A stretch of DNA of 64,000 nt from the NCBI GenBank assembly GCA_041166405.1, contig JBEEFV010000008.1, positions 45,147 to 109,146 of the forward strand, in the 5' to 3' direction. The notes below the pieces were generated by a model, which was not told the origin of the DNA, did no database searches, and worked only from the letters and a program-made list of their open reading frames with translations. This stretch comes from Actinomycetota bacterium (GTDB taxonomy: Bacteria; Actinomycetota; Acidimicrobiia; Acidimicrobiales; JACCXE01). Position 1 is the stretch's first letter. The number at the start of each line of letters is the position of its first letter. Of the stretch, positions 48,618-59,150 are shown piece by piece. A program made the translations under genes and the position numbers.

Positions 48618-49091
48618 TCACCTTTGCGCGTTCGGAGCGGCCTCGTCGATCTCGATCAGTCCGTGACCCCAGACGCCGCCGTTCGCAGCGACGAGGTCGG
48701 CGACGGCCTGCGGCAGCACACGCTTGCCGGCCAGCTCGTCGAGCGGCACCCACACCGCTTCGTACGTGCCTTTGCTCGCCGGATTCAGCAGTTCCGGGCC
48801 GGCCACGACGATGTCGTCGCTGTCGACGGAGGCGTCGAAGTACCACTGCTGCTGGAACGTGCCGTCCTCCTCCCGGTGGTTGATCGAGACACGCAGCTCG
48901 CCCAGCACGACGGCCACGCCCAGCTCCTCTTCGGCCTCGCGATGCGCCGCGTGCGCGACCGTCTCGCCTTTCTCGACGCTGCCGCCGGGCACCGCGAAGT
49001 AGTGCTGATCCGCGCGCCGGCGCTCGATCAACGCCAGCCGTCCGTGACGCACGATCACGACTCCGGCGCGCTCCGCGTGTTGCTTGCTCAT
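48618..49091 (-). CDS. NUDIX hydrolase
   Basis: Nudix box GGSVEKGETVAHAAHREAEEELG. Confidence 0.85.
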   Translation of the reverse strand: MSKQHAERAGVVIVRHGRLALIERRRADQHYFAVPGGSVEKGETVAHAAHREAEEELGVAVVLGELRVSINHREEDGTFQQQWYFDASVDSDDIVVAGPELLNPASKGTYEAVWVPLDELAGKRVLPQAVADLVAANGGVWGHGLIEIDEAAPNAQR

Positions 49092-49114: not shown

Positions 49115-50176
49115 GTGACCAATCGCACCGCCGAGTTGCTGTGGGCCGCCTGCCGGCCTTCCCCGTCGCTCGACGGTGTCGCGGCGGCCATCGCCCACGG
49201 CGCGGACCTCGACGTGGCCGCTGATCTGTCGATCGTGCAGCGCGTGTCGCCGTTGCTGTGGCGTGCGCTGTGTCAGGCGGGCATCACGCCCACCGACGAA
49301 CCTTGGTCGCAGCGGTTGGCCGACGACACGCAGCGCTGCCGCGCCCAAAGCAAGATGCTGCTGCCCCAGATCGGCCGGCTGGCGCTGGCGCCGCTCGCGG
49401 AGGTGGGGATCGAGCCGCTCGTCATCAAAGGCGCGGCCATCGCGCCGCGCTACCCCGACACGGGCCTGCGACCGATGGACGACGTCGACGTGATCATCTC
49501 GCACCATCAGGCCGACGCCGCGCTCCGGACGCTCAACGACTGCGGGTGGGTGACGCACACTCCGCCGAATCGGCGCCGGTTCGAAGTCGACGTGACGCAC
49601 AAATCGTTGCCGGGACTTCACATCGACCTGCACCGCGGCCTCGACTCGTGGCGTACGCGCGCCAACCGACTGACCAGCGAAGCCCTGTGGTCGTCGCGCA
49701 CTCCGGCGACGTTGTACGGCGCCCCGGCGTACGTGCTGCCACGCGAAATCGAATTGATCAGCTTGGCGGCGCACGCCGCGAAGCCGTACCACGGCTTCGA
49801 CCGCCTGATCTGGATCGTCGACATCACCGTGGCGACCCAGGCGAACCTCGACTGGGATCGCGTTGCGTTTCTGGCGCACGACACCCATTGCCGCACCGCG
49901 CTCGCGGTCGCCCTCACGCTCGCAGCACGCATGGGCGCGGAATCGCCCGCCGAACTGCGCCACATCGACGGCGCGAGGACGAGCGCGCTGTCCGACGTGT
50001 TGTCTGCGGACTGGCCGACGATCAGTCGCGACGGGCACGTGCGAGCCGCGCTGCGCTACGGGTTGGTCGACGACCGACGCACGCGCGCCACGTTGCTCGT
50101 CAGCGAGTTGTTCGACAAGAACGTGTGGGAAGTCCCGCGACGCGCCGCTCGCGTCATGCGGCGCCGCCTCAAGTAG
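49115..50176 (+). CDS. nucleotidyltransferase-family protein (NTP_transf_5/PF14907-like), RiPP-cluster associated
   Basis: GTG start. Motifs are RPMDDVDVII and LHIDLHRGL, characteristic of the uncharacterised nucleotidyltransferase family often encoded next to PqqD and HprK-like genes. Confidence 0.7.
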   Translation: MTNRTAELLWAACRPSPSLDGVAAAIAHGADLDVAADLSIVQRVSPLLWRALCQAGITPTDEPWSQRLADDTQRCRAQSKMLLPQIGRLALAPLAEVGIEPLVIKGAAIAPRYPDTGLRPMDDVDVIISHHQADAALRTLNDCGWVTHTPPNRRRFEVDVTHKSLPGLHIDLHRGLDSWRTRANRLTSEALWSSRTPATLYGAPAYVLPREIELISLAAHAAKPYHGFDRLIWIVDITVATQANLDWDRVAFLAHDTHCRTALAVALTLAARMGAESPAELRHIDGARTSALSDVLSADWPTISRDGHVRAALRYGLVDDRRTRATLLVSELFDKNVWEVPRRAARVMRRRLK

Positions 50177-51071
50177 AGAACGTTCCCGCCGTCACCAGCT
50201 CCGGCACCGAGTCGCGCCACTCGTCGCGACGCGGCAACCGCAACCGGACCGCCGGCGCCTTCGTCAGGAGCTTGGCGACGCGTCCGAACAGTTCGCGCCC
50301 GCGATCGTCGGGGTCTTGCAACCACACCGCGTGACGGGCGAGTGCGCGCAGCGCGTCGGCGCGACTCATGGCGTCGAGCGCAGGCGCGTCGCCGCCCGGC
50401 GCTTCCAGCAAGACGACGCGCGCCAAGTCAACGGGTCCCGTCGCTTGGACCGCCGACACGTCCCACGCCGTCTTGTCGGCCGAGTCGAATGCGCGCGCCA
50501 TGTCGCGGGGACCGGGCTCGCCGTGGGCCACGCGCACCCACGGGGGTCCGGGCCACACCTGGGCCGTGTCGCCGCGCAGATCGATCGTGACGACGTCCTC
50601 GCTGAGCGACGACCAGCCCTCGTCGACCAAACGCACGAGCACGCTCGACTTGCCGGAACCGGAGTCGGCGCACACGACGATGGCCTTGCCATCGCGGGCG
50701 CACGACGATCCGTGCACCAGCAACACGTCGAGTCCGTGCAGTAGCAACGGCAACCCGAACGACGCCACGAGCTGGCGTTGGACCGCGTCGTCACCCGGCG
50801 CAATCGTGACGCTGGCGTCGCGGGGATCGACTTCCAGCGCCGCGGCCTTCGGGCCCGCGAGCACGAGGCGCCCGTCGGGGCGACGGAACATCGCCGCGGC
50901 CTCACCGTTCTGCGACCACAGTTGCTGACCATTGGGCGGCTCGACCTCGCCGAAGCGGACCGTCGCGAAAGCTAATGGAATGCCTTGAGATGCGCCGATT
51001 GCGATCGTGGCGCCCTCGACGCGAACGCCGTGGCAGCCGGGCCAGGCGTCGTCGCTACGTGCCGGGCTCAT
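50169..51071 (-). CDS. HPr-kinase-like (HprK-related) P-loop kinase
   Basis: Lies inside ORF 50169..51182. The ATG at 51071 was chosen; a GTG at 51026 is also possible. P-loop segment is LLVHGSSCARDGKAIVVCADSGSGKSSVLVRLVDEGW...SEDVV, as in the HprK C-terminal domain. Confidence 0.7.
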   Translation of the reverse strand: MSPARSDDAWPGCHGVRVEGATIAIGASQGIPLAFATVRFGEVEPPNGQQLWSQNGEAAAMFRRPDGRLVLAGPKAAALEVDPRDASVTIAPGDDAVQRQLVASFGLPLLLHGLDVLLVHGSSCARDGKAIVVCADSGSGKSSVLVRLVDEGWSSLSEDVVTIDLRGDTAQVWPGPPWVRVAHGEPGPRDMARAFDSADKTAWDVSAVQATGPVDLARVVLLEAPGGDAPALDAMSRADALRALARHAVWLQDPDDRGRELFGRVAKLLTKAPAVRLRLPRRDEWRDSVPELVTAGTFST

Positions 51072-51330
51072 CGGCAGTCTCGCTGATGAGCCCTGCGTCC
51101 AGAAGTTGGCGCAGCAACGTGTCGGCATCGGCGCGCAACGCGTCGGCCGGCCGGTCCGGCCACGTGGCCCTGAGCTGGGCAAACGGGTCGGATCCGTCCA
51201 TTAACGCGTGCCACACCACGAGCCCCGACCGGTTCAGTCCGTAGTACCGCCCGGTGGCGACGTGAAGCAGGAATGCCTCGCCTTCCTCTTCGTGCAGGAT
51301 GACGTCTTCGGCTACACTCATCACCGGCAT
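51055..51330 (-). CDS. PqqD-family protein (RiPP recognition element, lasso B1-type)
   Basis: Lies inside ORF 51055..51438. The ATG at 51330 was chosen, with an alternative at 51321. The 91-aa product has the PqqD-like pattern EGEAFLLHVATGRYYGLNRSGLVVWHAL...LLRQLLDAGLI. Confidence 0.75.
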   Translation of the reverse strand: MPVMSVAEDVILHEEEGEAFLLHVATGRYYGLNRSGLVVWHALMDGSDPFAQLRATWPDRPADALRADADTLLRQLLDAGLISETADEPGT

Positions 51331-51405
51331 AAAAGAGAAGCTTGCTGGGTCACAAGAACTTTCGCAAGATACCGACAGTCGGTGCGTTCTCTGCACAACG
51401 CCTAT

Positions 51406-51413
51406 AGGAGGGG
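51406..51413 (+). promoter_or_regulatory. Shine-Dalgarno sequence AGGAGGGG for the precursor peptide gene
   Basis: AGGAGGGG lies 9 nt upstream of the ATG at 51423, in an unusually AT-rich 92-bp divergent intergenic region. Confidence 0.55.
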
Positions 51414-51422
51414 ACTGTCTCC

Positions 51423-51551
51423 ATGGACGAAGCAACAAACCTGTCCAATGACGGGTATGAGGCGCCGGCTCTCACCGAGTACGGCTCCATTGAGGAGTGG
51501 ACGAAGGGCGCGTACGCCGAGGTTATTAACCTCAGCGTCGTTCTTCCTTAG
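51423..51551 (+). CDS. lasso-peptide-type RiPP precursor, 42 aa (too short to appear in the ORF track)
   Basis: Hand translation gives MDEATNLSNDGYEAPALTEYGSIEEWTKGAYAEVINLSVVLP. It has a strong SD and sits between the B1 and B2 genes. The leader matches YxxPxLx3Gx5Tx exactly, with Gly following the Tx pair. Confidence 0.7.
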   Translation: MDEATNLSNDGYEAPALTEYGSIEEWTKGAYAEVINLSVVLP

Positions 51552-51552
51552 T

Positions 51553-51960
51553 TCAAACCCGCCCGATCGGCGCCGGAACCCATTGGGTACCGGCGCTGAT
51601 CGACGCGAGCGCTTGGTGCTCGCCACTCGGTAGAGGGTCGTAGACGCGCGCGTCGAGGATGATCCAGGCGTGCGCCCCCCATTTTCCGTCGCCGTAGCGA
51701 CGGCACCCCAGGATCAGCTCCGGGTCGTTGCCGGCGCGCGTGCACGCGATGGTCAGTGCGACCGACTGGGAGAGGCAGTTCGCCGCCATCAGACGTGAGG
51801 CGCGACGAACGGCGCGCAGGCCTTCGTCCGCGTCGAACGAAGGCCACGGCGCGCCGTGCGTGAGATGCCGCAACGTGGCGGTGGTGTCGCGGCGGCGAAG
51901 CGAACGCCTCGTCGCCGCGAGCAGCGCCGTGATGCGGAGTTGAAGCAGCACCGACCTCAT
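51553..51960 (-). CDS. lasso peptide biosynthesis B2-type protease (transglutaminase-like Cys protease)
   Basis: Start is MRSVLLQLRI, inside ORF 51553..52035. The 135-aa product has Cys in AANCLSQSVAL, His in GAHAWIILD and a following Asp, the pattern typical of B2/Transglut_core3. Confidence 0.75.
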   Translation of the reverse strand: MRSVLLQLRITALLAATRRSLRRRDTTATLRHLTHGAPWPSFDADEGLRAVRRASRLMAANCLSQSVALTIACTRAGNDPELILGCRRYGDGKWGAHAWIILDARVYDPLPSGEHQALASISAGTQWVPAPIGRV

Positions 51961-51982: not shown

Positions 51983-52162
51983 TTAGACGTGCAGGCAGAC
52001 CCCGGCGTCAGCTGAATGCACAATGACGCAGACACGCAGCAGGCCGGTATTCGTCAATGGCACCTGCGTGACATCGGCCTTCGCCGGTGCGGCGAGCGGC
52101 GATGCCGACAGGCCGAGCAGTGCGCCGCAGGCAGCGGCGATCACGATAAGGCGACGAAGCAT
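51983..52162 (-). CDS. 59-aa hypothetical secreted Cys-containing peptide (just under the apparent length cutoff of the ORF track)
   Basis: Hand translation gives MLRRLIVIAAACGALLGLSASPLAAPAKADVTQVPLTNTGLLRVCVIVHSADAGVCLHV. A GGGAGG SD (52171-52176) lies 8 nt upstream of the ATG. The N-terminus is signal-peptide-like. The gene lies 22 nt upstream of B2 on the same strand. Confidence 0.45.
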   Translation of the reverse strand: MLRRLIVIAAACGALLGLSASPLAAPAKADVTQVPLTNTGLLRVCVIVHSADAGVCLHV

Positions 52163-55097: not shown

Positions 55098-56633
55098 ATG
55101 GACCCTGCGGGCGAACACCTCCTCGCACACGCGGCGACGACGCCCGACAAGCCCGCTGTCGTGATGAACGCGACGGGTGCGACGCGGACGTACGCGCAGA
55201 TCGCGGCGCGCAGTGGCGCGCTGGCGCGCGTCTTGCACGACCGCGGCATGCGGCGCGGCGACCACGTGGCCGTGCTGCTCGACAACCAGCCCGAGTTCTA
55301 CGACGTCGTGTGGGCGGCGATGCGCGTCGGCGCGTACGTGACGCCGATCAACTGGCATCTCGTCGCCGCCGAGGCGGGCTACATCGTCGACAACTGCGAC
55401 GCCTCGGCGTTCTTCGCGACCGCTCGGCTGCGCGAGGTCGTCGCCGAGATGGAACCCCACATGGCGAATGTGAAGACGCGTATCTCGATCGACGGCCCGA
55501 TCGACGGCTTCGAAGTGCTCGACGACGTGATCGCCGGCGGCGCGACCGACGGTTTGGGCGACGACGAGTCCGAAGGCGGGTGGATGTTCTACTCGTCCGG
55601 CACGACGGGCCAGCCGAAGGGCATCCTGCCGCCGCTGGCGCCAATAGGACAAGGCGTGGGCGACATCGGCGCCAAGTCATTCCTGACGATGATGCTGACG
55701 GGCATGTTCGGCTTCGACGCCGACACCGTGTACCTGTCGCCGGGCGCGCCGCTGTACCACGCGGCGCCCGCAGGCTGGACGTACGGAACCCAGCGTCTCG
55801 GCGGCACCGCCGTCGTGATGGAAAAGTTCGAGCCGCTCGACGTGCTGGCGGCGATCGAACGTCACCGGGTCACCCACGTGCAGTTCGTGCCGACCCACAT
55901 GATCCGCCTCCTGAAGCTCAGCGACGAAGAACGCGCGCGCTACGACCTGTCGTCGTTGCAAGTGGTCGTGCACGCGGCCGCGCCCTGCCCCGTCGAGACG
56001 AAGCAGCGCTTCATCGAGTGGGTCGGGCCGATCGTCCACGAGTTCTACAGCGGCAGTGAAGGCGCAGGCCTCACGTACGTGAACTCGGTCGACTGGCTCG
56101 CGCATCCCGGCACCGTCGGCAAGTCGATGACCGGCCAGATCCACATCGTCGGTGACGACGGCGAGGAGTTGCCCGTCGGCGAAGAGGGCGAAGTGTGGTT
56201 CTCGACGAACCGCACCTTCGAGTACTACCAAGAGCCCGAGAAGACCAAGCAGGCGTGGGACGCGCGCGGGTGGAGCTGGATGGGCGACGTCGGCAAAGTC
56301 GACGAGGACGGCTACCTGTATCTCACCGACCGCGCGTCGAACATGATCATCAGCGGCGGGGTCAACATCTACCCGCGTGAAATCGAGGACGTGCTCGTCG
56401 TGCACCCGTCGATCGACGACGTCGCCGTCCTCGGCACGCCCGAGCCCGAGATGGGTGAACAAGTCACGGCGTTCGTCCAGCTGGCCCCGGGCGCATCGGC
56501 GACCGCCGACGAACTCATCGCGTGGTGCCGCGACCGCCTCTCGCACTTCAAGTGCCCGCGCGAGGTGCGCTTCGTCGACGAACTCCCCCGCCTGCCGACG
56601 GGGAAATTGCTCAAGCGTCGGTTGTTGTCGTAA
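55098..56633 (+). CDS. acyl-CoA synthetase (AMP-forming, ANL superfamily)
   Basis: ATG at 55098, inside ORF 55089..56633. Motifs are MFYSSGTTGQPKG, YSGSEG, MGDVGKVD, SGGVNIYPREIE and PTGKLLKR. Confidence 0.85.
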   Translation: MDPAGEHLLAHAATTPDKPAVVMNATGATRTYAQIAARSGALARVLHDRGMRRGDHVAVLLDNQPEFYDVVWAAMRVGAYVTPINWHLVAAEAGYIVDNCDASAFFATARLREVVAEMEPHMANVKTRISIDGPIDGFEVLDDVIAGGATDGLGDDESEGGWMFYSSGTTGQPKGILPPLAPIGQGVGDIGAKSFLTMMLTGMFGFDADTVYLSPGAPLYHAAPAGWTYGTQRLGGTAVVMEKFEPLDVLAAIERHRVTHVQFVPTHMIRLLKLSDEERARYDLSSLQVVVHAAAPCPVETKQRFIEWVGPIVHEFYSGSEGAGLTYVNSVDWLAHPGTVGKSMTGQIHIVGDDGEELPVGEEGEVWFSTNRTFEYYQEPEKTKQAWDARGWSWMGDVGKVDEDGYLYLTDRASNMIISGGVNIYPREIEDVLVVHPSIDDVAVLGTPEPEMGEQVTAFVQLAPGASATADELIAWCRDRLSHFKCPREVRFVDELPRLPTGKLLKRRLLS

Positions 56634-57822
56634 CCAGTCCCGCCTCGTAGGCGAGCACGACGAGTTGTACGCGGTCGCGGGCGTCGAGCTTCTGCAGGAG
56701 GTTGCGCACGTGCGTTTTCACCGTGGCCTCGGAGATGAACAGGGTCGCCGCGAGTTCGCCGTTCGTCAGTCCGCGGGCGATGTGAGTGAGGACCTCGATC
56801 TCGCGATCGCTGAGCCCGTCGATCGGCTTGTGATCCGCGCGCGACGGCTTGTTGCCGCGCGTGAACTCGCCGATGAGTTTGCGCGTGATCGACGGCGCCA
56901 GGAGTGACTCGCCTGCCGCGACGACTTGGATGGCGCGCACGACGTCGGCCGGTGGCGCGTCCTTCAGCATGAACCCGCTCGCGCCGGCGCGCAGTGCGTC
57001 GTAGACGTACTCGTCGAGGTCGAACGTCGTCAGGATCACCACGCGTGGCCCGCCGCCGGACGCGGTGATCTGCTGCGTGGCCTCGATGCCGTTCATCACG
57101 GGCATGCGGATGTCCATGAGCACGACGTCGGGCTGCGCGTCGGCGATCACCTCGAGCGCTTCCACGCCGTTGCGCGCCTCGCCGACGACCTGCAGCCCGT
57201 CGGTGGCGCCGAGGATGAGGCGGAAGCCGGTGCGCACCATTTCTTGGTCGTCGACGATGACGACCCGGATGACGCCCGACGCGTGTTCCTTGGTCGTCCC
57301 GACATTCGGCGGCGGAAATGTGTCGGGAAGTTGGCCGTCGAGCACTTGGTACAGGTCGACGGGCGCGCTCACGCCGCGCAGCGCGAACGCGCCGAGGTGA
57401 CGGCACTCGACGTTGGCGGCGTCGTGGGTCTCGCCGCTGAGCAAGATCTGGCCGCCGTGGGCCGCCGCGCACACGCGCGCCGCTTCGTGCACGGCGAAGC
57501 CGACGAGCTCGCCACCGTCGACTTCGACTTCGCCGGTGTGCAGTCCCATGCGCACTTGCAGTTCGAGCCCGACGGGCCATGCGTTGGCGCGCAGCGCGAT
57601 CTGCGCGGCGACGGCGGCGGCAACGGCGTTCTCGGCGTTGGCGAACTCTGCGAAGTAGCCGTCGCCCGTCGTGCGCACCTCGTCGCCGTCGTGCTGCGCG
57701 CACACGCGTCGCATGATGCGGCGGTGGTCGGCCAGCGCGTCGCCCCACTTGTCGCCGTGCGCTTCCACCAGGCTGGTCGAGCCCTCGATGTCGGTGAACA
57801 GAAACGTCGCCGTGCGTGTCAT
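56611..57822 (-). CDS. response regulator with N-terminal class III adenylate/guanylate cyclase domain: CHD-REC-LuxR(HTH)
   Basis: Start is MTRTATFLFTDIEGST, inside ORF 56611..58095, with an ATGA overlap with the kinase at 57819-57822. CHD motifs are FTDIEGS, TTGDGYFAEF and AVHEAARV. REC motifs are VIVDDQ, VVLMDIRMP, ILTTF and FMLKD. HTH is LSDREIEVLTHIARGLTNGELAATLFISEATVKTHVRNLLQKL. Confidence 0.8.
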   Translation of the reverse strand: MTRTATFLFTDIEGSTSLVEAHGDKWGDALADHRRIMRRVCAQHDGDEVRTTGDGYFAEFANAENAVAAAVAAQIALRANAWPVGLELQVRMGLHTGEVEVDGGELVGFAVHEAARVCAAAHGGQILLSGETHDAANVECRHLGAFALRGVSAPVDLYQVLDGQLPDTFPPPNVGTTKEHASGVIRVVIVDDQEMVRTGFRLILGATDGLQVVGEARNGVEALEVIADAQPDVVLMDIRMPVMNGIEATQQITASGGGPRVVILTTFDLDEYVYDALRAGASGFMLKDAPPADVVRAIQVVAAGESLLAPSITRKLIGEFTRGNKPSRADHKPIDGLSDREIEVLTHIARGLTNGELAATLFISEATVKTHVRNLLQKLDARDRVQLVVLAYEAGLVTTTTDA

Positions 57823-59150
57823 GACTCGATCGGGAGTCGGGCCACGACTTCGAAACCGGTGGCGTCGGACCGCGGCCCGGCGGTGAGTTCGCCGTCGAGC
57901 AGCGACACGCGCTCGCGCATGCCGATGAGCCCGAGGCCGGCGCTGCGCACCCTGGGAGTGGCGAGCGGACGCCCGTTGTCGCGGATCTCCACGGTCACCA
58001 TGTCTGGGTTGTAGCTCAACACAACGTCGACCTTCGTGGCGTCGCCGTGCTTGGTCGCGTTCGTGAGCGCCTCCTGCACGAGCCGGTAGATGCACAGCTC
58101 GACGCCGCCGGGGAGGTCGCGGACTTCGCCGCGCTTTTCGACGTGCACGGCCAGGCCCGCCGTCGTGCGTTCGGCGAGCCGGTCGAGTTCGGCGAGACCC
58201 GGCTGCGGTTCGAGCGTGACGTCGCCGGTTTCGCCGCTCGGCCGTCGCAGCACTCCGAGCATGCGCCGCAGTTCGGTCAGGGCGTCACGTCCCGCGGAGG
58301 CGACCGACGCCAGCGCGGCCCGGTCACCGGTCATCGACGCCGCTTCGGCTTGCAACGTCATGGCGGTGACGTGATGCGACACGACGTCGTGCAGTTCACG
58401 GGCGATGCGCGCCCGCTCGTCGTCGACTGCGAGGTCGCGTGCGGCTTCGAGTTTCATGGCGCGCTCGTTCATCCGATTGAGATCGCTCCGGGCGACCTGC
58501 ATCAGTCCTGCGAGAAACATGAATGCCGCCACGCGCAGAGCTTCTTCCCCGAAGCGGTGCGACGTGAAGGGCTGACCGCTCAACAACATCTGCGGCGCGT
58601 GATGCGGGACCTCGATCCCGAAGACTTGAACGACGGTTCCGCCCACGGCGTAGCCGGTGGCGAGTCCGTAGACGAACGGGTTGTCCATGGCGAGCGAGAT
58701 CGCGGCGGCCAAGAACGAACCGATCATGACTATGGATGTTCCGCCGCTGCCGGCGCGTGTGACGACAACCGCCAACACCAGGATCACGGCGGCGCGAATC
58801 GTTTTCTTCAGCTTCTGCTGGTGGAACCGCGCCGTCGCGGCGACGCCGGCTGCGAGGGTGATCGCGATGTCCGCGGGCTTGCCCCAGGGCAGCAACGGCA
58901 CGCCGGGATACGCCAGCAGAAACCCGAACAGCAGCACCCGACTGACGCCGATGGAAAGCACGGCTATGCGGTCGCCGGGAGCCGTGCTTTCGAGCAGCTG
59001 ATTCGGGTTCTTGTCCACCTCTGCCTGCGCGACGCTCACGCCGCGGCGGAAGTCGGCGTAGCTCTCCTCGACGTATGAGCGGATCCCCATGCCCGCAGTG
59101 TGGCGAATTCGCCCCGCGACCGCATCGACTCCCGGGACGATTCGGCTCAT
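57819..59150 (-). CDS. sensor histidine kinase (HisKA_3/NarX-DesK type), multi-pass membrane
   Basis: H-box ARIARELHDVVSHHVTAM. HATPase segments are VQEALTNATKHG, RDNGRP and GLGLIGMRERV. About 5 N-terminal helices. The start is uncertain (59150 or the ATG at 59090). Confidence 0.8.
   Translation of the reverse strand: MSRIVPGVDAVAGRIRHTAGMGIRSYVEESYADFRRGVSVAQAEVDKNPNQLLESTAPGDRIAVLSIGVSRVLLFGFLLAYPGVPLLPWGKPADIAITLAAGVAATARFHQQKLKKTIRAAVILVLAVVVTRAGSGGTSIVMIGSFLAAAISLAMDNPFVYGLATGYAVGGTVVQVFGIEVPHHAPQMLLSGQPFTSHRFGEEALRVAAFMFLAGLMQVARSDLNRMNERAMKLEAARDLAVDDERARIARELHDVVSHHVTAMTLQAEAASMTGDRAALASVASAGRDALTELRRMLGVLRRPSGETGDVTLEPQPGLAELDRLAERTTAGLAVHVEKRGEVRDLPGGVELCIYRLVQEALTNATKHGDATKVDVVLSYNPDMVTVEIRDNGRPLATPRVRSAGLGLIGMRERVSLLDGELTAGPRSDATGFEVVARLPIES

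Follow-up and report, generated by a model that had tools for sequence, protein, structure and literature searches.

Lasso peptides are defined by a macrolactam ring of 7-9 residues, and it has been established for PadeB1 and PadeB2 that the Y/WxxP leader is bound by the B1 protein, which hands it on to the B2 protein (PMC5067487). In the paeninodin and pseudomycoidin clusters homologues of HPr kinase phosphorylate a serine of the linear precursor, and PsmN adds a hexose to the phosphate (PMC9266682, PMC8498205). The nearest described system to the one considered here belongs to Bacillota and is that of the linear polyphosphorylated peptides (LPP; Popov et al., Nat Commun 2026, PMC13381572), whose clusters lack a cyclase and are evolutionarily tied to the phosphorylated lasso peptides; their kinase, LppK, polyphosphorylates an internal serine, and both LPP and the paeninodins are stated to be restricted to Bacillota. 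We analyzed a stretch of 64,000 nucleotides from an uncultured member of the Acidimicrobiales in the Actinomycetota (assembly GCA_041166405.1, contig JBEEFV010000008.1; this whole stretch is called the window below), in which a 42-codon gene, A, lies among genes for a leader-recognition protein (B1), a leader peptidase (B2), a kinase-like protein (K) and a protein of the nucleotidyltransferase fold (N). Gene A very probably encodes a genuine precursor of a peptide made on ribosomes and modified after translation (a RiPP) that is not a lasso peptide. The model that we favor, with a probability of roughly two in three, is that the genes form a self-contained, lasso-derived RiPP cassette without a macrolactam synthetase, the product of which would be a linear peptide modified on a serine.

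Gene A (51423-51551, plus strand) starts with an ATG at 51423 and ends with a TAG at 51549-51551. It encodes the peptide MDEATNLSNDGYEAPALTEYGSIEEWTKGAYAEVINLSVVLP, which the predicted cut divides into MDEATNLSNDGYEAPALTEYGSIEEWTK and GAYAEVINLSVVLP, that is, a leader of 28 amino acids specified by 51423-51506, and a core of 14 residues, GAYAEVINLSVVLP, specified by 51507-51548. An earlier inspection of the letters without database searches (hereafter the sequence-only reading) had arrived at exactly this open reading frame (ORF) and translation, and the ORF is present in the program-made ORF list at a threshold of 30 aa. Numbered from the predicted cut, the leader carries Tyr at -17, Pro at -14, Leu at -12, Gly at -8 and Thr at -2, followed by Gly1 of the core. 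The peptide scores 23.8 bits on the NCBIfam model NF033521 lasso_leader_L3 (cutoff 19), and the best match of the peptide family profile in the PDB is the leader of TbiA-alpha, EYRSPELKEYGRVEDRTAG, solved in complex with TbiB1; both results uphold the proposal that the leader follows the lasso consensus YxxPxLx3Gx5Tx. A six-frame search of the window for the pattern Y..P.L...G.....T.G gives a single occurrence, where 200 shuffles lead one to expect 0.015. The leader motif was also sought in relatives, a check that the sequence-only reading had advised, and the pattern was found once per locus, at the equivalent position, in all 16 related loci. These loci, L001 to L016, were drawn from the contexts of nine kinase homologues or their peptides and three genome loci, with L001, L004-L006 and L010 being short or near-duplicate contigs. 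Given the NF033521 score, the single occurrence of the motif and its constant position in relatives, the ORF is real and not a chance match. It is preceded, as had also been noticed before, by a Shine-Dalgarno sequence, AGGAGGGG (51406-51413, plus strand), with a 9-nt spacer to the ATG, and purine-rich GGAGG-like blocks stand at this position in relatives.

A single-sequence search with the A peptide recovered 15 peptides with 62-98% identity, while a profile of diverse members recovered 223 homologues at E<=1, and an exhaustive hidden Markov model search of 1.84 billion representatives gave 80 at E<=1e-3. The homologues come mostly from metagenome genomes of Acidimicrobiales and other Actinomycetota, and two of them, from Acidimicrobiales, already bear the NCBI name "lasso RiPP family leader peptide-containing protein". 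In the 15 loci for which DNA is available, the invariant Tyr, Pro, Leu, Gly, Ile, Thr and Gly1 are each specified by 2-3 synonymous codons, and the constant Ser of the family by both AGC and TCG; this synonymous codon use at invariant residues indicates that selection acts on the A reading frame. Scanning metagenome contigs with the peptide profile yielded just three short loci and added little. The top profile matches P0213, P0230 and P0250 were dismissed as repetitive, unrelated proteins. P0226, P0251, P0264 and P0267 are longer proteins with 2-5 tandem lasso-leader-like units of the form YxxPxLxxxGxxxxxT separated by Ser/Asp-rich spacers; they are unrelated to the cassette, and P0226, to judge by its sequence, may end in an intramolecular-chaperone-like tail.

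The cores of the family are ill suited to a lasso ring. Among 139 unique cores, of 10-17 residues, residue 1 is Gly in 124 and Gln, Ala, Ser or Asp in the remainder; 41 are devoid of Asp and Glu, and 32 have one of these residues at positions 7-9. The sole acidic residue of the A core is Glu5, and its sole Ser is at position 10 (codon AGC, 51534-51536). No ring acceptor is conserved, and the family data strengthen the claim of the sequence-only reading that this core cannot close a ring of 7-9 residues. Nearly all cores share instead a tail of the form [ILV]-S-[ILV]-[ILVF]-[ILF], as in NLSVVL, NISIII and DISIII. In a first count of 115 unique cores, 113 had the Ser-tail motif and were scored for positions: the Ser falls on position 10 in 86 cases (range 8-11), with 3-5 residues after it, and polar residues occupy the site two before it (N 42, D 24, C 10, E 9, T 7, Q 6). 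It is on this site that the acids at positions 7-9 fall in the scored cores. In the inspected alignments of cassette peptides the Ser alone among the core residues is without variation, which lends support to the earlier suggestion that Ser10 is a plausible kinase target. A lone constant hydroxyl at a near-fixed distance from the motif bound by a RiPP recognition element (RRE) fits what one would expect of the target of an RRE-tethered enzyme.

The enzyme that would close such a ring was sought at several levels. The SGGxDS PP-loop motif is absent from every frame of the window and of L001-L003; no Asn_synthase domain (PF00733) was detected among the 30 window ORFs of at least 443 aa, and none lies within 10 kb of the cassette among the Pfam-annotated genes of the related loci with gene calls. 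The sequence-only reading had made no mention of this lack of a cyclase gene. The locus combines one half of what marks a lasso cluster, namely the YxxPxLx3Gx5Tx leader with Thr-2 and the pair of a B1/PqqD RRE and a transglutaminase-like B2, with the absence of the other half, namely an Asn-synthetase-like macrolactam synthetase and a core in which Gly/Ala/Ser/Cys1 and an Asp/Glu at 7-9 form the ring and a sufficiently long tail threads it. Since both of these defining lasso features are lacking, the family should not be filed as a lasso peptide.

Several further features of the cores deserve mention in their own right. Positions 5 and 8 co-vary: 34 unique cores pair Glu5 with Asn8, and 10 pair Gln5 with Asp8. 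This apparent swap of the acidic group could reflect an i/i+3 contact or mere phylogeny. A subfamily of cores contains two Cys residues, with the form GPCxxLxCISIILP or QxCDxLICISIILP (L014 5339-5461, L015 2577-2699, and the peptides P0160, P0166, P0173, P0175, P0179, P0186, P0188, P0194, P0200 and P0208), which suggests a disulfide loop just ahead of the Ser tail. An N-x-S glycosylation sequon was considered and rejected, the residue two before the Ser being Asn in just 42 of the 113 scored cores; a ring between Gly1 and Glu5 or between Gly1 and Asp8 was likewise rejected, as neither acid is conserved.

By their sequence motifs, the enzymes that accompany A look functional. B1 (51055-51330, minus strand) is a PqqD-family RRE (PF05402, E=6e-10) conserved in 8 loci. 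It falls below the NCBIfam lasso_PqqD cutoffs (44.5 vs 70), though it passes that of Pfam PqqD, and its family profile matches TbiB1 best in the PDB (5v1u, E=1.3e-9), followed by the paeninodin-like PbaB1 (9x90) and TfuB1 (6jx3). With TbiA-alpha and TbiB1 as the best PDB matches of the leader and of B1, respectively, leader recognition appears to be of the ordinary lasso type. B2 (51553-51960, minus strand) is a transglutaminase-like cysteine leader peptidase of the Transglut_core3 family (PF13471, 49 bits; NF033537, 47.6 bits, cutoff 33), so that the placement of A between RRE and protease genes, as first described, is confirmed by family assignments on both sides. A longer B2 ORF, beginning with a GTG at 52035, is possible, and the ATG at 51960 agrees with the starts of homologues; in the alignment the Cys of NCLSQS and the His of GAHAW are invariant, and the third position of the triad is Asp or Glu.

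K (50169-51071, minus strand) is a P-loop kinase like HPr kinase and ScmC, identified by its GxGKS motif, a fold model and weak family matches. It scores 32 bits on TIGR04352 (cutoff 200), 21 bits on the ScmC model TIGR04249 (cutoff 125) and 17 bits on TIGR04355 (cutoff 200), and thus does not reach the HPr-rel-A equivalog cutoff; its 92 homologues carry the precomputed Pfam assignment PF27840 "ScmC". The alignment of K preserves an invariant GxGKS Walker A motif and a WPGPPWVR block. An AlphaFold (AF2) model of K (pLDDT 86, pTM 0.87) matches, by Foldseek, ATP-dependent phosphoenolpyruvate carboxykinases and the catalytic domain of HPrK/P with E of 1e-6 to 1e-5 and TM up to 0.64 (HPrK/P). N (49115-50176, plus strand) belongs to the NTP_transf_5 family (PF14907, E=3e-39) and displays the invariant nucleotidyltransferase signature KG...RYP...LRPMDDxD. 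Sequence searches of K, B2 and N against the PDB gave no useful matches (those of K had E ~0.8). Their catalytic motifs are intact, and as far as motifs can tell B2, K and N look active.

The arrangement of these genes is as distinctive as their composition. A is antisense to B1 and B2, both of which are on the minus strand, an orientation that the sequence-only reading had not mentioned. It diverges from B1 over 92 nt and converges with B2, the two stops being separated by a 1-nt gap in the window and overlapping by 4 nt in L002 and L007. K and the 3' end of B1 share 17 nt, and N is convergent with K. B2, antisense A, the PqqD protein, the kinase and the convergent NTP_transf_5 protein occur in a common order and orientation in the loci that extend far enough to reveal it, L002, L003, L007-L009, L011-L013 and L016, and the placement of an antisense A inside the B2-B1-K string is the same in L002, L003, L007-L009 and L011-L016; the B2 of L016 was missed by annotation, and its ORF is intact. 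The flanks of the cassette vary, and include leuS, beta-lactamase, luciferase-like and fatty-acid genes, while L007 and L016 share the CMD/thiolase and amidohydrolase/acyl-CoA-dehydrogenase flanks of the window, which points to long vertical retention in these three. An ABC-2 transporter pair (ABC_tran and ABC2_membrane) adjoins the cassette in L002, L008, L011 and L013-L015. At the position of N, L015 has an unannotated gene at the end of the contig. Scans of the locus with consensus promoter and terminator models found neither, and an Rfam scan of it was empty. With no terminator predicted between the convergent A and B2, their transcripts should overlap, an arrangement that suggests antisense control.

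Directly upstream of B2 lies a gene for a small protein of 59 aa (51983-52162, minus strand) with a signal peptide and a mature part that includes TGLLRVCVIVHSADAGVCLHV. After the signal peptide it ends in the pattern ...h-C-[VIL]-[TIS]-[VIL]...C-x-x-h, with two Cys residues, and it matches no Pfam or NCBIfam family above cutoff. Of the 17 sequences scanned (the window and L001-L016), 12 encode a protein of this kind, of 59-76 aa, close to the cassette, and most of the others are short contigs. The gene may lie upstream of B2, beside N or past the transporter, and homologues were located at L002 10756-10977, L003 12150-12383, L007 8886-9065, L008 7315-7524, L009 12021-12230, L011 7480-7659, L012 12057-12251, L015 4686-4895 and L016 10554-10757, with two copies in L013 (6879-7106 and 7091-7321). 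The two-Cys protein is probably a sixth component of the system, and could confer immunity or serve as a carrier or partner. The strand motif of this protein, x-h-C-h-h-h, is reminiscent of the tail of the A peptide, x-h-S-h-h-h.

By analogy with the characterized precedents, the order of steps, the chemistry, export and role that we propose would be as follows. B1 would bind the YEAPAL segment of the leader, and, while it holds the precursor, K would phosphorylate the constant Ser10 of the core; for phosphorylation of this residue in particular the odds are, in our estimate, only slightly better than even. B1 would then present the junction between Thr-Lys and Gly to B2, which would free the 14-residue core GAYAEVINLSVVLP. 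N might add a further group, a sugar or one derived from a nucleotide, to the phosphoserine. The resulting linear and very hydrophobic product would be exported, by the adjoining ABC-2 transporter in the many relatives that have one. It would probably act at the cell envelope or outside the cell, alongside the secreted two-Cys protein; such a role is indicated by the recurrence of the ABC-2 transporter and of a Sec-secreted partner.

Several points weigh against this model. The cyclase search spans the window and up to 10 kb of the related loci, and a distant genomic copy is possible. Every member of the family derives from uncultured metagenome genomes. No transporter adjoins the cassette in the window. 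For the placement of a precursor gene antisense to its processing genes we found no precedent. In L014 a gene for a GH5 glycosidase lies beside K in place of N, which implies that N may not be universal, and even in the precedent the part played by N is uncertain, LppN having been inactive in a heterologous host (PMC13381572). Lastly, the Ser of the family precedes 3-5 hydrophobic residues, whereas the characterized lasso kinases need a C-terminal Ser.

The last two points also feed the most durable of the alternatives, according to which B1 and B2 process the peptide as proposed while K and N act on another residue, the C-terminus, the two-Cys protein or an envelope polymer, or the modification of the Ser is not based on phosphate. 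The requirement of known lasso kinases for a C-terminal Ser (PMC8498205) and the inactivity of LppN on testing would be in keeping with it, as would the very low similarity of K to characterized kinases (TIGR04352, 32 vs 200; PDB E ~0.8) and the glycoside-hydrolase genes that adjoin the cassette in L008 and L014. Against this, K overlaps B1 translationally and is always part of the cassette; the one constant residue of the core is a Ser whose distance from the RRE-binding motif is almost fixed, as an RRE-tethered kinase would require; and LppK demonstrates that an internal Ser can serve as a target. On balance we regard this alternative as unlikely.

It is far less probable that A encodes a true lasso peptide and that a cyclase elsewhere in the genome closes an unusual ring, between Gly1 and Glu5 or, in relatives, between Gly1 and Asp/Glu8. 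The leader, B1 and B2 are of bona fide lasso type, the 32 cores with Asp/Glu at 7-9 offer a potential acceptor, and remote tailoring genes are known elsewhere, such as that for the citrulassin PAD (PMC9266682). These arguments meet the failure to find a cyclase, be it in the window or among the Pfam-annotated related loci up to 10 kb from the cassette, the 41 acid-free cores, the existence of cores of as few as 10 aa, and the tolerance of Gln, Asp, Ala or Ser as residue 1. The acidic position is merely the polar site two residues before the Ser, which accepts N, D, C, E, T or Q, and a ring between Gly1 and Asp8 would leave about 5 residues for both loop and tail.

No more credence can be given to a scenario in which K and N replace the cyclase, with a Ser10 or carboxylate, activated by phosphorylation or nucleotidylation, undergoing elimination or cross-linking (for instance through a dehydroalanine, to the N-terminal amine or a Cys) to form a non-lasso macrocycle. 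Phosphorylation of Ser/Thr followed by elimination is established in class III and IV lanthipeptides; Gly1 is kept in most cores in spite of there being no cyclase that needs it, and the two Cys residues of the GPCxxLxCISIILP subfamily flank the motif. The cassette, however, contains no lyase or cyclase domain, residue 1 varies in distant members, and we know of no analogous macrocycle-forming activity for HPrK-like or NTP_transf_5 proteins. Least credible of all is the view that the locus is what remains of a lasso cluster in decay, deprived of its cyclase and no longer yielding a product: the missing cyclase and the Trp->Arg leader and Cys->Ser B2 changes of L016 would suit it, but the six-part arrangement persists across lineages whose kinases are just 40-50% identical, the catalytic motifs are intact, substitutions in the peptide are strongly synonymous, and the synteny of L007 and L016 speaks for long vertical retention.

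Some observations on the control region and the surroundings of the cassette may be recorded here. Within the divergent A/B1 intergenic region, an alignment of seven loci reveals a conserved block, GAACTTTCGCAAGATAC (51356-51372), which reads TTGCGCAA..ATAAA in relatives; TTGCGCAA is partly palindromic, and the block is a candidate -10 element or operator. The promoter put forward by the sequence-only reading fared unevenly: its CAAGAT (51365-51370) lies inside this block, the best conserved of the region, its TTGCTG is not conserved, and with the consensus scan empty the proposal remains a weak one. A second conserved block, GCGTTC (51384-51389), is present in the same 92-nt region, and could be part of a promoter or operator. 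In L016 (10001-10129 and 10126-10602) the otherwise near-invariant EEWT of the leader has Arg in place of Trp, and GCRRY of B2 has become GSRRY; these changes may represent incipient decay in that genome. Between N and the amidohydrolase gene the window has a NUDIX hydrolase gene (48618-49091, minus strand), which the syntenic L007 and L016 lack at this place; the gene may have been inserted in a lineage-specific manner, or have a tie to nucleotide-sugar or phosphate chemistry. Further away, a response regulator with an N-terminal adenylate/guanylate-cyclase domain, a receiver and a GerE domain (56611-58095, minus strand) adjoins a HisKA_3 histidine kinase (57819-59150, minus strand). In L007 and L016, too, a two-component pair lies at this position with respect to the cassette, the regulator of L016 being without the cyclase domain.

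If the proposed linear, Ser-modified peptide is indeed the product, the cassette would have a wider significance. It would provide a natural B1/B2 pair that frees linear peptides, of use in RiPP engineering, and a compact test bed for the action of an HPrK-like kinase and an NTP_transf_5 protein on an internal Ser, with a putative partner protein in addition. A phospho-glycosylated hydrophobic product would widen the range of RiPP chemistry known from uncultured Acidimicrobiia. Genome mining that requires a cyclase should miss the family, or label its members just "lasso leader peptide-containing protein". No published B2-dependent, cyclase-less cassette in Actinomycetota was found in the literature covered, which is incomplete. 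We tentatively raise the possibility, to which we give somewhat less than even odds, of a distinct and undescribed RiPP class of Acidimicrobiales and other Actinomycetota, characterized by cyclase-free reuse of B1 and B2, linear peptides of 10-17 residues, a phosphate-based (phospho-glycosyl or nucleotidyl) group on the Ser of an [ILV]-S-[ILV]3 tail, a Sec-secreted two-Cys hairpin partner, and antisense-controlled expression within the B2-B1-K unit.

Comparison with known systems places the cassette between several of them. The computational families HPr-rel-A and SynChlorMet of TIGRFAM/NCBIfam likewise pair an HprK-like P-loop protein with a PqqD protein, and are presumed to act in peptide modification; they differ in that K lies far below their cutoffs, B1 matches lasso PqqD models, and the cassette has no radical-SAM partners. 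The Tbi pathway is a canonical one for lasso peptides: it includes a cyclase, and its cores bear a ring acceptor. Among solved structures the Tbi system, from Thermobaculum terrenum (PDB 5v1u, 5v1v), is the closest relative of the leader (EYRSPELKEYGRVEDRTAG vs YEAPALTEYGSIEEWTKG) as well as of B1, and the best template for leader binding. The paeninodin and pseudomycoidin clusters (A, K, B1, B2, N, C, D) share with the cassette the split B1/B2, an HPr-kinase homologue and a nucleotidyltransferase-like protein; their cyclase C, McjD-like exporter D, threaded lassos and kinase in need of a C-terminal Ser have no counterpart in the A cassette.

The LPP clusters, a published precedent that the sequence-only reading had not mentioned, come closest, in that they and the Actinomycetota cassette alike combine an RRE, a kinase resembling HprK, an NTP-transferase and the lack of a cyclase with a predicted linear product, the phosphorylation of which is likewise a prediction in the present case. 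The two differ in several respects. In LPP the leader, of the form YxxPxVLxHQxIxFETxxS, is cut by a SipW-like signal peptidase I (LppS), whereas the cassette has a full lasso YxxPxLx3Gx5Tx leader, YEAPALTEYGSIEEWTK, and B2 (PF13471) as its peptidase, with no signal-peptidase domain in any cassette neighborhood scanned. The PDB matches of the B1 of the cassette do not include LppB (9x8z). The LPP precursors have 35-200 aa, with a core of 45 aa in the one studied, as against cores of 10-17 aa that are hydrophobic and end in a Ser-[ILV]3 tail, and their exporter is MsbA-like where that of the cassette is of the ABC-2 type or wanting. Neither an antisense precursor gene nor a secreted two-Cys protein has been reported for LPP, and unlike LPP the cassette family is found in Acidimicrobiales and other Actinomycetota. 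Lasso-type machinery appears to have lost its cyclase at least twice, once in Bacillota, where a signal peptidase serves, and once in soil Actinomycetota, where the original B2 was kept and the outcome is a large family of peptides, conserved and more than 220 strong.

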